This document shows, in pieces, positions 2,897 to 45,247 of a stretch of 64,000 nt of DNA. The notes beneath the pieces were generated by a model. That model had not been told where the DNA came from. It was given only the letters and a program-made list of their open reading frames with translations, and did not search any database. The number at the start of each line of letters is the position of its first letter. Within the stretch, counting starts at the first letter, position 1. The position numbers were made by a program, and so were the translations under genes. This DNA is from Parcubacteria group bacterium (GTDB lineage Bacteria > Patescibacteriota > Minisyncoccia > UBA10092): assembly GCA_016186325.1 (NCBI GenBank), contig JACPLW010000002.1, positions 1,485 to 65,484 on the forward strand. The letters are read 5' to 3'.

Positions 2897-4738
2897 TTAC
2901 GCCCCAACCATAATCGCTTCAAACTCATCCCGTTCAATCGTTTCTTTTTCTATCAGCCGCATGGCAATTTCTTTAAGTTTTTTCCTTCTTTGGGAAATGA
3001 TTTTCTTTGCCGTGTCATAAGCAATAGAAAGAAAACTCGTAATTTCTCTGTCAATAAGCTGGGCTACCGATTCTGAATAGTTTTTTTCTGATCCGAGTCC
3101 TCTGCCTAGAAACACCATTTCGTTTTCTTCGCCCAAAGAAATTGGGCCTAGTTTTTCCGACATCCCAAATTCGGTAACCAACTTTCTCGCCAGGTCGGTT
3201 GCTTTTTTAAGATCACTCGCGGCACCGGTAGTAAGTTCTTTGAAAACAATTTTTTCGGCCGCATAGCCCCCCATCAAAACGGCAAGATCGGCCAAAAATT
3301 GGCCTTTGGAATGAAGATGGCGGTCTTCAATCGGGAGCTTTAAAGTATAGCCGGCGGCACTGCCACGGGAAACAATCGAAATTTTATGAACCGGGTCGGC
3401 ATTGGGCAAAACGCCGGCAACCAACGCATGGCCCGCTTCGTGATAAGAAGCAATTTCTTTTTCTTTTTCTGAAAGAATGTGGCTTTTGCGTTCCGGCCCT
3501 AAAAGAACTTTTTCAATGGCATAGTAAAAAGTTTCTTGCTCAACGATTTTTTTGTTCTGGCGGGCGGTTAAAATCGCCGCCTCGTTTATGACGTTAGCCA
3601 AATCGGCGCCGGAAAAACCCGGAGTTCTTTCGGCAACCCTTCTCAAGTTAACTTCCGGAGCCATGGGCTTATCAAGCGCGTGGATTTTTAAAATCGCCTC
3701 GCGATCGTTTATATCCGGAATATCAATCATGATTCGGCGGTCAAACCGTCCGGGGCGAAGCAACGCTGGATCCAAAATGTCGGGACGGTTTGTAGCCGCC
3801 ACAATAATAACGTTGGTCTCACGGTCAAACCCGTCCATTTCAACTAGAATTTGATTGAGCGTTTGCTCTCTTTCATCATGACCGCCGCCAAGGCCCGCGC
3901 CTCTTTGCCTGCCAACCGCGTCAATTTCGTCAATAAAAATGATAGAAGGTGCGAATTTTTTTGCCATATTGAATAAATCTCTAACTCTTGAAGCGCCAAC
4001 CCCGACAAACATTTCCACAAACTCGGAACCGGAAATGTAGAAAAAAGGCACGTTGGCTTCGCCGGCAACAGCTCGAGCTAAGAGGGTTTTGCCGGTGCCC
4101 GGCGCGCCTACAAGAAGAGCGCCTCTTGGAATTCTGGCGCCAATATCTAAAAATTTTTTTGGATTTTTCAAAAAATCAACAATTTCAACGAGTTCTTCCT
4201 TGGCTTCGTTCGCTCCGGCAACATCGGAAAACATAACTTTTTTGCGTCCATCAAACGGCCCGGAAAGTTTGGCTTGCGATTTGCCAAATGAAAATGCACC
4301 CATATTGGCGCGACCGGCCTGCCGCATCATGTACCATATTAAAAATCCGACGAAGATAAACGGCAAAATAATGGGAAGAACCGTGCCGGCCCAAAAACTA
4401 AAACCAACGCTTTGTTCAACTTGAATATTTACATTTTTTAACTTAGCGCCGTCAACGCCATAGTTTTTCAGGGTTTCGGAGAGCGAACTTTCAATTTCTT
4501 TTTTGGCAAAAAATTTATCGTTGTTTTTAGAAGTTATTTCCAAATCATCGTTTTTAACGACAATTTTCGAGATTTCTTCGTTATTTATTTTACTAACCAG
4601 CTCGGAAAGAGCAATCACGTTCGGCTTTTCAAAAGCCGAATTAAGATAAGCAAAAATAAACGCGATCAAAAATAACGCGCCCAAGACAATAAGAATCTGA
4701 TTGATAAACTTTTTATAATTGAATTTAATTATTTTCAT
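2897..4738 (-). CDS. ftsH: ATP-dependent zinc metalloprotease FtsH
   Basis: 613 aa; N-terminal TM segments; Walker A GAPGTGKT; Walker B IIFIDEID; zinc motif HEAGHA. Confidence 0.95.
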
Positions 4739-4789
4739 AATCGGTTTTTGGTTATATTATCATAAAATTCAGAAATAGGCAATTTAATA

Positions 4790-4857
4790 CCCCGTCCCGC
4801 AGCCCCGACGTTGTAGTCGGGGCTCCGACCATAATGCGTCGGAGCTGCGGGACGGGG
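4790..4857. repeat. composite multi-hairpin element (family A outer stem plus two inner hairpins)
   Basis: CCCCGTCCCGCAGC [CCCGAC..GTCGGG] [CTCCGAC..GTCGGAG] CTGCGGGACGGGG; second copy of the same architecture at 54098-54155. Confidence 0.6.
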
Positions 4858-4870
4858 TTATCCTAGAATC

Positions 4871-7508: not shown

Positions 7509-7594
7509 AGGCAGGGACTTTTGTATTGGTTGTCGCTCTTGAGGGCCGTTATTGGCCTCTTGAGCTTAAACCCTGTTTAGGAACTATTAACCAC

Positions 7595-10485: not shown

Positions 10486-11208
10486 ATGACAATTTCTTGG
10501 TATGGAGAGGCCTGCTTTTTACTTGAAAGCGGGGGCATAAGAATCTTAATCGAACCGCCGCAAAAAGAATCCGGAATTAATCCACCTCGCTTAAAAAGCG
10601 ATGTTTTGGTTTATTCCCGCCCCAAAGGGGCGCCGCCGGAGGCGAGCCTCGCCAAGGGCGGGAGGCTCGCCTCATCAAATGAGGCGGCGAAACCTCGCGC
10701 CGAGAGAGTGGCTTTTTCCGACCCAGAATCAGGAGCGTTTATAATCGAATCGCCGGGCGAATACGAAGTTAAGGGCGCCAATATCCTAGGGATTGCCGAC
10801 CCCGCAGCTGCGGGGCAAGCAAATATTATATATAGCATTGAAATGGACGAAATAAAAATCGCCCATCTCGGTTTTGCGAATAAAAAATTTAATAGTGAAA
10901 AATTAGCAGAGCTTGACGATCCGGACATTGTTCTCGCGCCTGTTGGCGGAGGCGACATTTTGGACGCCGAAGGAGCAATGAACGTTATAAACCAGCTGGA
11001 ACCGAGCATTGCCATTCCAATGCTCTATGATATAAAGGGATTGAAAACCAAAAAAGCCCCTCTTTCCATGTTTCTTAAAGAAAGCGAGGCGAAAGAATCT
11101 CCCCAGCCAAAATTAATAATTAAGAAAAAGGACTTGGTCGAGGAAGAAACAAAAATTATAATTTTATCCCCCTACGGGGGATCTCCCGCAGGGAGAGAAC
11201 AATCATAA
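10486..11208 (+). CDS. MBL-fold metal-dependent hydrolase-like protein (UPF0173-like) with GC-rich in-frame insertion
   Basis: N-terminus MTISWYGEACFLLE and C-terminal DIVLAPVGGGDILDAEGAMNVINQL..IPMLYD fit the family; central ~45 aa (GAPPEASLAKGGRLASSNEAAKPRAERVA) is encoded by GC-rich palindromic DNA. Confidence 0.55.
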   Translation: MTISWYGEACFLLESGGIRILIEPPQKESGINPPRLKSDVLVYSRPKGAPPEASLAKGGRLASSNEAAKPRAERVAFSDPESGAFIIESPGEYEVKGANILGIADPAAAGQANIIYSIEMDEIKIAHLGFANKKFNSEKLAELDDPDIVLAPVGGGDILDAEGAMNVINQLEPSIAIPMLYDIKGLKTKKAPLSMFLKESEAKESPQPKLIIKKKDLVEEETKIIILSPYGGSPAGREQS

Positions 11209-11456
11209 TGAAACGAATACTGGAAAACATCCAAACCAAACCTGGCGCCGTAAAACACGTAGTAATGTGGGTCGGAATTTTTTTAATAATGACCGCGATT
11301 TTTAGCTTTTGGCTTATGACTTTTTCCTGGCAAGTATCTCAAACTGCGGAAAATAACTCCGCTTCAGAACTTGAAAAAGAGCTGCCATCGGTTTTTAACA
11401 GTTTAAAATCACAGACCGGCCTTCTTTTTGAAACTATGAAAAACTTAGGCAAATAA
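11208..11456 (+). CDS. small membrane protein (hypothetical)
   Basis: 82 aa with one hydrophobic helix; start overlaps upstream stop (ATGA). Confidence 0.4.
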   Translation: MKRILENIQTKPGAVKHVVMWVGIFLIMTAIFSFWLMTFSWQVSQTAENNSASELEKELPSVFNSLKSQTGLLFETMKNLGK

Positions 11457-11506
11457 AATGGTCCCCCCACCCTTTGCGGATTTTGCTCTAAGTTTAAAAA
11501 TGGATA

Positions 11507-14044
11507 ATGACTAAAAAAATAATCACAAACTCTAAAGAAACCCCTAAAAACGAAAGAGATTCGCAAAACTTAAACTTATCCGCAAAGGGTGGGGGAGAAA
11601 CGGGCTACGTAAAACCGCGGGAAATCGTCCGCGAGATGGAAGATTCGTATCTTGAGTACGCGATGTCGGTTATTATTTCCCGCGCTCTTCCCGATGTCAG
11701 AGACGGACTAAAGCCGGTTCACCGCCGGATTCTTTATGCCATGCACGATCTGGGCCTGACCCATCAGGCAAAATTCCGCAAATCGGCTCTTGTTGTCGGC
11801 GAGGTTTTGGGTAAATATCATCCGCACGGCGATATTTCGGTTTACGACGCCTTAACCCGGTTGGCGCAGGACTTTTCTTTGCGTTACCCGCTGGTAAACG
11901 GACAAGGTAATTTCGGAAGCATTGACGCCGACGCGCCGGCGGCGATGCGTTACACGGAGGCGCGGCTTACTTCGCTCGCCGAGGAAATGCTAAAAGACAT
12001 AGATAAAAACACTGTAGATTTTATTGATAATTATGACGCCACCCGCAAAGAGCCAAAAGTTCTTCCGGCCGCTGTTCCCCAGCTTCTTTTAAACGGCACC
12101 GTGGGTATAGCCGTAGGTATGGCTACAAATATTCCGCCCCATAATCTTGGGGAGATAATTGACGCTACTTGCCAACTTATTAAACATCCTAAAAGTTCGG
12201 TTGAAGACCTTTTGGAATTCGTAAAGGGTCCCGACTTTCCGACCGGCGGCATTATTTATTCCAAAAAAGATATTGCCGCCGCTTACGCCACCGGTAGGGG
12301 GCCTATTATCGCCCGCGGCGTAGCCGAAGCGGTTGAGGATAAAAAAGGCCGCGCTCAAATAATAATTACCGAAATTCCGTATCAGGTAAATAAATCAACC
12401 CTTCTTGAAAAAATTGCCGAGCTTGTCAGCGAGAAAAAAATTGACGGTATCCGCGACTTACGCGACGAATCGGACAGGGAGGGCATGAGAATTGTCATTG
12501 AGCTCAAAAGCGACGCCGCGCCGCAAAAGATTTTGAATAACCTCTACAAGCACACCGATCTTCAAAAAACTTTCCACTTAAACATGCTGGCTTTAGTTGA
12601 CGAAATCCAACCGCAAGTTCTTTCGCTTAAGGCCGTTTTGGAATATTACCTAAAACACCGAGAAGAAGTGGTGGTGCGTCGCGTAAAATACGATTTGGTA
12701 AAAGCGCAAGAGCGAGCGCATATATTAGAGGGCTTAAAAAAAGCGCTTGATTCAATTGATGAAGTAATTAAGGTTATAAAGAAATCGCAAGACAGGAGCG
12801 AGGCCTTAAAAAATCTTATAAACAGGTTCAAACTCACGGAAATTCAGGGGAGCGCTATTTTGGAAATGAAACTTGCCACTCTAGCCAATCTTGAAAGAAA
12901 AAAGATTGAAGATGAACTTATTGAAAAGGTAAAATTGATTAAAGAATTGACCCTTATTTTAAAAAGCCGCGAAAAAATACTGGAAATAATTTATCAAGAG
13001 CTTCAGGCAATAAAAGAAAAATATAACGACCAGAGAAAAACGAAAGTTATGGCCTCGTCTCTGGGCGAATTCAGAGAAGAAGATTTGGTACCGCTTGAAG
13101 AAGCTGTCGTAGTCTTAACCGAATCCGGATACATTAAAAGAATGAATCCCTCTCTAGTCCGCTCACAGCATCGCGGCGGCAAGGGCATGACCGGAATGTC
13201 TACAAAAGAAGAGGACGCTGTCACCCACTTTGTTTCAGCAAAAACCCACGATAACGTTTTGTTCTTCACCAACACCGGCCGCGTTTTCCAAACTAAGGTC
13301 TGGGAAATTCCGGAGGCCAGCCGGCAATCGCGCGGCAAAGCCGCAGTAAACTTTTTGGCCTTGAGCGGCGATGAAAGAGTTAACGCGATTCTGACATACA
13401 ACGAAAAACAGCTAAAGGAGAAGGGCACTGAAAAGTTCTTGGTGATGGCAACCAAGAGCGGACTAGTCAAAAAAACACCGATCGCCGACTTCGGTTCGGT
13501 TCGTCATTCCGGCCTCATTGCCATAAAACTTAAGAAGGGCGACTCTCTCAAGTGGGTAAAAGGCTCTTCGGGCGAAGACCAAATAATTTTTGTAACTATG
13601 CTCGGGCAAGCGATAAGATTTTCGGAAAAAGACGCGCGGCCATTGGGGCGGGCGACAGCCGGAATGCATGGCATCCGCCTGCATCAGGGCGACGAAGTTG
13701 TCAGCATGGATGTAATAACCGCCTCGGCCGCAAAAGACCAAAACACCAAATTCTTGGTGATTATGGAAAACGGTTTCGGCAAAAAAACATTCATTAAATT
13801 TTACAAAAAACAAAACCGGGGCGGTTCCGGCGTTAAAACCGCTAAAGTTACCCCTAAGACCGGAAAAATCGTTTCGGCGTTCATTATAGGACCAGACACT
13901 AAGGAAATGATTGCCATTTCAAAAAAAGGCGTAGTAATCCGCCTTGATCTTGAGTCAATTTCAACCGTTTCACGTGTAACCCAAGGCGTCCGTATAATGA
14001 GAGTTGAAGCGGGAGATAAAGTAGTTTCAGCAACGTTGTTGTAG
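11507..14044 (+). CDS. gyrA: DNA gyrase subunit A
   Basis: 845 aa; [37 protein letters not shown]; full-length GyrA with C-terminal beta-pinwheel repeats. Confidence 0.95.
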
Positions 14045-39847: not shown

Positions 39848-39883
39848 TAAATCGAGGATCCGCGATAACCTTGGTGGGCCCAG

Positions 39884-39957
39884 AGGGCCCATAGTTAAGT
39901 GGTATAACGGCGCATTCGCATTGCGTAAGCGGGAGTTCGATTCTCCCTGGGTCCACC
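39884..39957 (+). tRNA. tRNA-Ala (anticodon CGC), nested inside the split tRNA-Ala locus
   Basis: Acceptor GGGCCCA/TGGGTCC with G3.U70; anticodon loop TTCGCAT; CCA encoded; flanked by 15-bp inverted repeats CGATAACCTTGGTGG / CCACCAAGGTTATCG. Confidence 0.8.
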
Positions 39958-39972
39958 AAGGTTATCGGGACA

Positions 39973-44953: not shown

Positions 44954-45123
44954 TAATTTAGCAAAGTGGGCCAAAGCCAAATGTTTGGCTTTGGCGGGAA
45001 TTTTAGTGAGCTTTAGCGAGCGTTAAAAAATTCCCCGGAAGAGCGACTCGTTTATTCCCGATTTGTCTAAAAATTCAAGTTCTTGTAGAATTTTTAGCAA
45101 CAAATCGCAATCCCGCTTAAAGT

Positions 45124-45197
45124 GGGCGCATAGCTCAGCTGGTTAGAGCGTCGCATTTACACTGCGAAGGCCCTCCGTTCGAATCGGAGTGCGCCCA
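45124..45197 (+). tRNA. tRNA-Val (anticodon UAC), second copy
   Basis: Acceptor GGGCGCA/TGCGCCC; anticodon loop TTTACAC; T-arm CTCCG TTCGAAT CGGAG. Confidence 0.8.
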
Positions 45198-45247
45198 CTT
45201 TGTGCGGGACACCGAGTAGGTCCGAGGTTCAATCCCTCGAACGCCCA
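45198..45247 (+). other. tRNA 3'-fragment (T-arm CGAGG TTCAATC CCTCG plus acceptor AACGCCC A) directly abutting tRNA-Val
   Basis: No matching 5' half; lies between tRNA-Val and a tyrosine recombinase gene. Confidence 0.4.

Follow-up and report, generated by a model that had tools for sequence, protein, structure and literature searches.

An apparently lineage-specific palindromic repeat, probably acquired by insertion, at the 5' end of gyrA in an Azambacteria-like Parcubacteria genome

The gene encoding DNA gyrase subunit A (gyrA) of a Parcubacteria bacterium carries at its 5' end a perfect 18-bp inverted repeat, which is the subject of this analysis. The locus was studied within a stretch of 64 kb (64,000 nucleotides, hereafter the window; 42.7% GC) of contig JACPLW010000002.1, which belongs to a metagenome-assembled genome (MAG) of an Azambacteria-like member of the Parcubacteria within the Candidate Phyla Radiation (CPR). 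The closest named relatives of its GyrA are Candidatus Azambacteria, and the protein is 100% identical to the NCBI entry 'DNA gyrase subunit A [Parcubacteria group bacterium]'. The GyrA comparison set comprised 120 homologs (P-numbers designate proteins and L-numbers DNA loci), and gyrA was compared at the DNA level with L001, L002, L003, L004, L005, L006, and L140. The features of the locus are listed below (ORF, open reading frame; uORF, upstream ORF).

11208-11456, plus strand: upstream ORF of 82 aa with no Pfam match; TAA stop at 11454-11456
11458-11514, plus strand: retained ancestral gyrA start codon (11458-11460), now opening an out-of-frame uORF of 18 codons that runs across the left arm to a TAA at 11512-11514
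11464-11481, plus strand: left arm of the repeat, CCCCCACCCTTTGCGGAT, consisting of the core CCCCCACCCTT and a variable inner 7 nt; located in the leader and uORF, outside the gyrA frame
11464-11533, plus strand: left-hand insertion of about 70 nt, comprising the left arm and AT-rich sequence with the new start codon, as delimited by manual comparison with L001 and L003
11482-11577, plus strand: AU-rich spacer (loop) of 96 nt, holding a secondary helix (11489-11497 with 11570-11578), the new ATG, and GyrA codons 2-23
11507-14044, plus strand: gyrA, 845 aa, with PF00521 and PF03989; its ATG at 11507 is the first start codon past an in-frame stop
11534-11551, plus strand: AAAGAAACCCCTAAAAAC (KETPKN), which weakly resembles AAAGAAACTGAAAAACCC (KETEKP) of the nearest relatives (13/18 identical)
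11561-11596, plus strand: right-hand segment of 36 nt, composed of TCGCAAAACTTAAACTT, the right arm, and an A; found at the same codon position in L002, which encodes P0004 (SQTLNLSLKGGG)
11578-11595, plus strand: right arm of the repeat, ATCCGCAAAGGGTGGGGG, forming gyrA codons 24-30 (L-SAKGGG-E)

The arms CCCCCACCCTTTGCGGAT and ATCCGCAAAGGGTGGGGG are complementary at 18 of 18 positions and stand 96 nt apart, as the first-pass annotation of this DNA had described, and the right arm indeed encodes the SAKGGGE stretch named there. The inverted repeat is real and lies far above chance expectation: with up to three mismatches allowed, the 18-mer has four matches in the window, where 0.01 are expected, and none of 100 shuffled sequences equaled that number. 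The arms have a GC content of 63-67%, compared with 42.7% for the window. Pairing continues inward imperfectly, with an 8-nt bulge followed by a helix of AAGTTTAA (11490-11497) with TTAAACTT (11570-11577). The predicted fold of 11450-11610 has a free energy of -44.8 kcal/mol (z = -5.0 compared with shuffled sequences), and in a partition-function fold of 11380-11720 the arms pair with p>0.98 (unpaired probability of 0.02 or less). In the same fold, the region from -20 to +15 around ATG 11507 has a mean unpaired probability of 0.59, and the start codon is placed in the AU-rich loop. The repeat had also been described as bracketing a ribosome-binding site together with the start codon and the first codons of gyrA; the start codon and the first 23 codons are enclosed, but no Shine-Dalgarno (SD) motif precedes either ATG 11458 or ATG 11507. 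An SD-like motif was found in just 12 of 66 called genes (L001-L005, L137, L139, L147), and the gyrA leaders of the relatives are SD-less too. In these loci, as is usual for the clade, leaders are AU-rich and lack an SD, and stop and start codons overlap or abut at gene junctions. A scan for promoters and terminators returned nothing convincing within the gyrA insert.

How the start of the gene has changed can be read from its junctions. The 82-aa ORF meets gyrA in the sequence TAAAATG (stop, an intervening A, and ancestral ATG), and the same junction occurs in L001 and L003. The sequence GGCAAATAAAATGGT around this ATG is identical to that of L001 at 15 of 15 positions, with the insert following directly. 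Because the left-hand insertion of about 70 nt is not a multiple of three and holds stop codons, the ancestral ATG is now out of frame and gyrA must start at 11507; upstream, the gyrA frame extends no farther than a stop just 5' of 11498. The uORF stop at 11512-11514 overlaps the region of the new gyrA ATG (AAUGACUAA). On the other side, the conserved GAA-ACG-GGC-TAC (ETGY) resumes 3' of the right-hand segment. The sequence at 11534-11551, between the two halves of the insert, may represent leftover host codons or a chance match in A-rich sequence. The insertion history is two-part, and the proposal that a palindromic element had been inserted in frame into gyrA thus needs amendment: an inserted, lineage-specific element with related copies elsewhere fits the data, but its left-hand part shifts the frame and the start codon was replaced. 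Two routes by which the ancestral ATG could still feed the gyrA frame were considered and rejected. A U UUA AAA heptamer is present at 11493-11499, but a -1 shift there meets a stop; gyrA sits in the +1 frame, and no matched take-off and landing codons for bypassing were found.

The resulting N-terminal extension is real and, in its full form, has no counterpart in the other homologs compared, as had been claimed. The conserved YLEYAMS motif, which begins at residue 20 in the clade's usual 817-aa form and at residue 28 in P0003, the nearest relative, here begins at residue 48, a difference of +28 and +20 aa, respectively. In alignments with solved GyrA structures, residue 35 of the query is the first to be aligned (with their residue 8), so about 27 extra residues precede the structured part of GyrA. 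N-terminal tails among the relatives carry between 0 and 21 extra aa, and several sublineages have short K/E-rich extensions; the insertion site is a tolerant, naturally variable, and unstructured N-terminal tail. A protein search with the N-terminal 64 aa of GyrA returned six short, uninformative fragments. As a separate observation, the GyrA homologs P0033, P0037, and P0078 reach 1128-1214 aa and contain an intein domain (PF14890), which the GyrA of the window does not have.

Among the 120 homologs, the full extension occurs in P0001, the protein of the window genome, only. The nearest relatives, P0002 and P0003 (92.5% and 92.1% core identity), begin with M[VL]KETEKPKM[ED]xGYVK, and in their DNA (TAAAATGGTAAAAGAAACTGAAAAACCCAAGATGGAGACAGGCTAC and its equivalent in L003) GyrA starts directly after the stop of the 82-aa ORF, with neither arm traceable. 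The element is likewise absent from the more distant L004, L005, L006, and L140. The alignment proposed in the first-pass annotation therefore gave a clear answer, the extension being absent from the two 92%-identical proteins and from more than 100 other GyrAs, and both the extension and the palindrome appear, from these comparisons, to be lineage-specific. Since the upstream DNA of the relatives contains nothing like GGGTGGGGG, the idea that the right arm is a former SD motif or a recruited 5' untranslated region was rejected. In L004 (approximately 2955-2985), the 82-aa ORF and gyrA are separated by a 52-nt spacer in which a 7-bp hairpin, ATCCGCC(14 nt)GGCGGAT, precedes a T-rich run; the ATCCGC/GCGGAT hexamers of the hairpin are those of the inner part of the window arms in opposite order, which is probably a coincidence.

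A half copy of the element is present in one relative. P0004, encoded at L002 and, identically, on L131 and L134, contigs of two JGI samples, reads MASKEKEKSQTLNLSLKGGGEAGY, with ...TCGCAAACTTTAAATTTATCATTGAAGGGTGGGGGAGAA at the same codon position as the right-hand segment of the window, and no left arm was found within 8.5 kb in L002 with three mismatches allowed. The GyrA core identities place P0004 with P0005 (91.9%) and P0010 (90.0%) and not with the window (88.2%), and P0005 and P0010 lack the right-hand segment (L140). In the right half, the window and L002 share an identical outer 11-nt core and the following AG, and differ at four positions of the inner 7 nt; despite these four differences, the left arm of the window matches its own right arm perfectly. 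The occurrence of the right half in two non-sister lineages may reflect an old insertion followed by losses, recombination, or repeated insertion. L001-type and L002-type contigs derive from the same sample and thus from co-occurring populations. A metagenome scan for the junction of the right arm with gyrA recovered L002-type contigs only and no further two-armed locus.

The search for the 18-mer elsewhere, which had also been suggested, was productive. In the window, the sole other near-matches to it form a second, compact copy:

58756-58817, plus strand: TCCCCCACCCTTGGGGAAT, a 24-nt loop, and ATTCCCCAAGGGTGGGGGA, with arms complementary at 19 of 19 positions, in frame in a UvrD/PcrA-like ORF at 57224-59143 (NPPPLGNALRASEKNIPQGWGS)

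This helicase copy is translated as ...LMTENPPPLGNALRASEKNIPQGWGSEKLNLMTLHSAKGLEF. Its arms share 15 of 18 positions with those at gyrA, including the 11-nt core, and the inner 7 nt differ while staying complementary. Compared with the 88%-identical P0122 (L137), the helicase is 15 aa longer through this insert, which is lineage-specific; P0122 and most other listed homologs have a 9-residue linker (QEERKNESG) at this site, and about 12 nt of the host DNA were lost along with the insertion. Two further copies were found among the matches listed from a motif scan of species-representative genomes. Candidatus Azambacteria RIFCSPLOWO2_01_FULL_44_84 (L088) has a 67-nt copy with arms TCCCCCACCCTTGGAGAAT (19/19 complementary), in frame in a bona fide family 4 glycosyltransferase (GT4; ...ATGPPPLENKSPISTRETRFSKGGGGELL...). 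Compared with the helicase copy, its arms show one change, compensated in the opposite arm, and its interior has the same layout of a mini GC-hairpin and AGAAA in reversed orientation. The other is a hairpin with the same core that is open in frame in a Saccharibacteria comEC gene (L110). The elements measure 132 nt at gyrA, 62 nt in the helicase gene, and 67 nt in L088, with loops of 24-29 nt in the other copies and 96 nt at gyrA. In all four CPR copies (gyrA, helicase, L002, L088), AG follows the right arm on its 3' side, and there is no AG on the left side. These copies form a small, low-copy family with a conserved outer core, CCCCCACCCTT...AAGGGTGGGGG, and a hypervariable, self-complementary inner stem, translated within genes. 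No further CCCCCACCCTT motif occurs in the 64-kb window, which therefore contains no insertion sequence (IS) with these ends. Lineage specificity and related copies elsewhere leave the first-pass proposal clear of two contrary findings, namely ancestral conservation of the extension and lack of a second copy.

At least 120 DNA stretches from many phyla matched the core palindrome in the motif scan. The matches listed are dominated by an alphaproteobacterial family, CCCCCACCCTTCCCTCCCCCGC..GCGGGGGAGGGAAGGGTGGGGG, resembling repetitive extragenic palindromic (REP) sequences. Among them (L007-L126), the REP-like hairpin CCCCCACCCTTCCCTCCCCCGCNNGCGGGGGAGGGAAGGGTGGGGG is very abundant in Xanthobacteraceae, Azospirillum, Devosia, and others, and separate multi-copy families with the same outer 11 bp were seen in Erythrobacteraceae, Pirellula, and Magnetococcus. 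Also among the matches listed, a Saccharibacteria contig has a hairpin containing the core motif (L065, 7302-7344) that lies 13 nt upstream of where a 23S rRNA gene starts. In viral contigs, the real motif matched twice, and permuted GC-rich palindromic controls matched one, three, and zero times. As the controls matched just as often as the real motif, most non-CPR matches were treated as background and unrelated REP families, and the notion of one universal cross-phylum element was rejected. The controls suggest that the likeness of the outer 11 bp across phyla is a coincidence against a background of GC-rich hairpins.

[quoted passage not shown] What the alignments indicate is that a lineage-specific palindrome of a repeat family was inserted into the N-terminal tail of GyrA, that the ancestral ATG was put out of frame, and that the new ATG lies inside the insert; the repeat looks like selfish or neutral DNA and not like a conserved regulatory switch. 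According to this reconstruction, the element, which we assume was mobilised in trans, would have landed in the variable N-terminal tail directly past the ancestral gyrA start, and gyrA would since have been read from ATG 11507, giving a tail longer by 20-28 aa. Translation might proceed as a relay, in which ribosomes terminate at the end of the 82-aa ORF (TAAAATG) and reinitiate at 11458, translation of the uORF melts the left arm, and termination at 11512-11514 allows a restart at the overlapping ATG 11507. Alternatively, initiation could be direct and SD-independent on the unstructured AU-rich loop, the usual start context in this clade. The stem would then be a by-product of the element, and the perfect arms would reflect recency or hairpin-templated correction rather than function.

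Several points weigh against such an insertion. Copy number is low, with two copies in the 64 kb of the window, none in the 6.5 kb past its end, and none in approximately 70 kb of related loci. No target-site duplication was found at gyrA, the helicase gene, or L088, the flanks being ATGGT(C)/.../AGAAAC, GAAAAT/.../AGTGAA, and ACCGGT/.../AGGAGA, respectively (slashes mark the element borders), with no direct repeat. No transposase or autonomous partner with matching ends was identified, the matches to the core in other phyla are probably background, and the relay through the uORF is a step that we infer. The gyrA copy is itself atypical in its 96-nt spacer (compared with 24-29 nt), its possible residual host codons, and the occurrence of the right half alone in L002, so that a single clean transposition does not account for everything. 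Finally, the 18/18 pairing, maintained despite four of seven inner positions differing in L002, could point to selection for pairing and not to recency.

Some of these features would be explained if the left arm had been made locally. An ancestor with the 36-nt right-hand segment, as in L002, might have undergone a template-switch or fold-back error, or a repair event, that copied about 26 nt in inverted orientation, together with AT-rich filler, behind the start codon. The solo right arm of L002, at the same codon position and with no left arm within 8.5 kb, is what such an ancestor would look like; the left arm fits its own right arm even at the four inner positions that differ in L002, the complementarity runs on into AAGTTTAA/TTAAACTT, and the spacer may keep host N-terminal codons between the halves. 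Fold-back copying, however, normally places the arms next to each other, and here 96 nt separate them; compact two-armed hairpins are the rule in the family (helicase, L088), so that a two-armed ancestor whose left arm was lost in L002 is just as simple; and the window and L002 are not sister lineages; we therefore regard a local origin as rather unlikely. That the stem-loop is a cis-regulatory mRNA element for gyrA translation or stability, such as a thermosensor, an RNase III target, or a uORF-dependent switch, we judge to be quite unlikely. The very stable predicted fold around the start codon and first 23 codons, the overlap of the uORF with the left arm and the gyrA start, and the perfection of the arms although the solo arm of L002 has diverged in its inner part would all agree with such a role, and local structure should matter for initiation in an SD-poor clade. 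Yet the two-armed structure is found in one genome only and is absent from relatives including those with 92% identity: L001, L003, L004, L005, L006, and L140 lack it, and L002 has one arm. Searches of Rfam with the whole window (gathering threshold), with 11300-11800 (E<=10), and with ten motif-bearing loci returned tRNAs, rRNAs, and sub-threshold matches to generic miRNA hairpins only, hence no family at threshold, and equivalent palindromes lie inside the coding regions of unrelated genes, where such a role does not apply. The earlier suggestion that the stem sequesters the translation start is not supported either, since the arms are paired while the start codon sits, largely unpaired, in the loop, and there is neither conservation nor an Rfam match. 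A regulatory side-effect of the insertion (through the stem, the uORF, or an RNase III substrate) is possible, although nothing found here supports it.

A bolder combination of insertion and regulation would hold that CPR bacteria harbor a novel class of GC-rich palindromic micro-elements (CCCCCACCCTT...AAGGGTGGGGG) colonising essential genes in frame (gyrA, uvrD/pcrA, a glycosyltransferase, comEC), and that the gyrA copy was co-opted, with translation of the uORF melting an 18-27 bp stem and so gating gyrase synthesis. If true, an SD-poor organism would possess translation-coupled, possibly temperature- or RNase III-sensitive control of its DNA supercoiling capacity; we consider this combination improbable. 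Perfect 18-bp inverted repeats around a short segment with a start codon also have the geometry of known invertons, in which case the segment would switch gyrA on and off or recode its N-terminus. This reading was rejected and is scarcely credible, since the gyrA frame, once the 96-nt spacer is inverted in silico, has no ATG, GTG, or TTG past the stop, and the ancestral ATG is still out of frame; moreover, an OFF state is implausible for an essential gene, and the other copies, with loops of 24-29 nt, are too compact for switches. An assembly or amplification artefact, for example a chimeric inverted duplication, might be suspected because the sequence derives from a MAG and the two-armed form is on one contig only, but the chance of this appears very small. 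The arms are just 18 nt long, the sequence in which they lie is unique and has an intact long ORF, the right half was recovered independently in two JGI samples (L131, L134), related copies are present in other assemblies, and 1,015 comparable bases at the window end are identical in the independent Logan contig L147.

We compared the preferred reading, a palindromic repeat insertion, with known systems. RPEs are palindromic repeats of about 100-150 bp inserted in frame in housekeeping genes (PMC10969869). The copies described here resemble them as short palindromic repeats found repeatedly in frame in housekeeping genes that are unrelated to one another, in a small bacterium with an AT-rich genome and a host-dependent life, and translated as an extra peptide at tolerated positions; the helicase (+15 aa), L088 GT4, and L110 comEC copies are of this in-frame kind. 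They differ in having no sequence relationship to RPEs, in being shorter (typically 62-67 nt, and 132 nt at gyrA), in their GC-rich arms, and in their low copy number, and the gyrA copy differs further in that only its right half is translated and that it replaced the start codon instead of forming an in-frame fusion. Membership by descent is not expected for a Parcubacteria/Azambacteria-like host. MITEs such as Correia repeat enclosed elements (CREE) and enterobacterial repetitive intergenic consensus (ERIC) sequences share with the present family terminal inverted repeats, small size, lack of coding capacity of their own, an AT-rich interior, and the ability to change the expression of neighboring genes or to fuse with them in frame (PMC10969869). 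Terminal inverted repeats (arms 18/18, 19/19, and 19/19) and a fitting size were found here; target-site duplications were not, and no cognate IS was identified in the 64 kb of the window. Also unlike in MITEs, the outer 11 nt of the gyrA family are conserved and the inner stem is hypervariable, and this combination looks like selection on the hairpin more than on a transposase-binding terminal repeat.

The GC clusters of yeast mitochondria are GC-rich palindromes in an AT-rich genome, found in frame in var1 (PMC8811140). The likeness extends to their sometimes in-frame position, fast-evolving loop, and merging and shuffling (PMC8811140), but it is one of analogy only: the window genome is bacterial and the sequence is another; in contrast to the 'byp' elements, the copies in the helicase, GT4, and comEC genes can be read through in frame with no evidence of bypassing; and instead of a terminal AG/TAG duplication, AG is found only to the right of the arm. 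REP sequences and bacterial interspersed mosaic elements (BIMEs) are likewise dispersed palindromic hairpins, and the alphaproteobacterial REP-like family happens to have its outer 11 bp in common with the CPR copies. REPs lie outside genes, measure 20-40 nt, and bear a GTAG or CGTC tag (PMC3733652), whereas the CPR copies are intragenic or at a gene start and have neither GTAG nor CGTC next to their stems. No gene for a REP-associated tyrosine transposase (RAYT) turned up, the ORFs of the window not having been screened for PF01797. The TAAAATG junction and the uORF stop (11512-11514), which overlaps the gyrA ATG at 11507, have the geometry of cistrons coupled by termination and reinitiation; unlike established coupling, the arrangement here is putative, is not conserved, and would have arisen accidentally via insertion.

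In our literature searches, no account of elements of this sort in CPR/Patescibacteria came up. In-frame colonisation by palindromic repeats has hitherto been best known from the RPEs of Rickettsia and the GC clusters of fungal mitochondria, and the present data would indicate that colonisation of housekeeping genes by small palindromic repeats operates in reduced CPR genomes too. They would also offer a concrete route by which an essential gene can have its start codon replaced through an insertion, without lethality. In the annotation of CPR proteomes, P/G-rich inserts and N-terminal extensions that look odd may derive from repeats, and start calls near repeats need care. The gyrA case by itself reveals no new regulatory mechanism.

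GC-rich palindromes are frequent in this lineage beyond the family described above. The window contains 59 perfect GC-rich stems of at least 8 bp, some of them tRNA stems; ten first-order Markov shuffles gave 14-22. The helicase loop that carries the second copy holds other palindromes in other Azambacteria, with repeated CCGAC/GTCGG units in P0132 (L138, approximately 4680-4750) and with CCAGC/GCTGG and CCCGCC/GGCGGG in P0158 (L139, approximately 7520-7580). That these independent, sequence-unrelated inserts lie in the same loop before the LNLMTLHSAKGLEF motif suggests a hotspot or a strongly tolerant site. A further gene with lineage-specific inserts adjoins the gyrA region:

10486-11208: Lactamase_B_3-like ORF with three lineage-specific G/P/A-rich inserts

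Nested GC palindromes occur in it at 10614-10700 and 11168-11200 (TCCCGCCC...GGGCGGGA, GAGGCGAGCCTC...GAGGCTCGCCTC, CCCCCTACGGGGG, and TCTCCCGCAGGGAGA). The inserts, PPEASLAKGG, PRAERVAF, and the C-terminal SPYGGSPAGR, are not found in the orthologs, and the orthologs in L002 and L004 have different inserts in other loops. The space between two minus-strand ORFs contains, at 4789-4858, a GC-rich inverted repeat (ACCCCGTCCCGCAGCCCCGACG...) whose arms measure 22 nt and which has internal sub-hairpins, and its CCGAC/GTCGG units resemble those of the L138 helicase insert. Inverted repeats of 20-21 nt lengthen the acceptor stems of two tRNAs far past the ends of the mature molecules, at 45111-45209 (tRNA 45124-45197) and 39863-39967 (tRNA 39885-39955), and may be either long processing stems or tRNA-flanking palindromes, which have reportedly been observed in Neurospora mitochondria.

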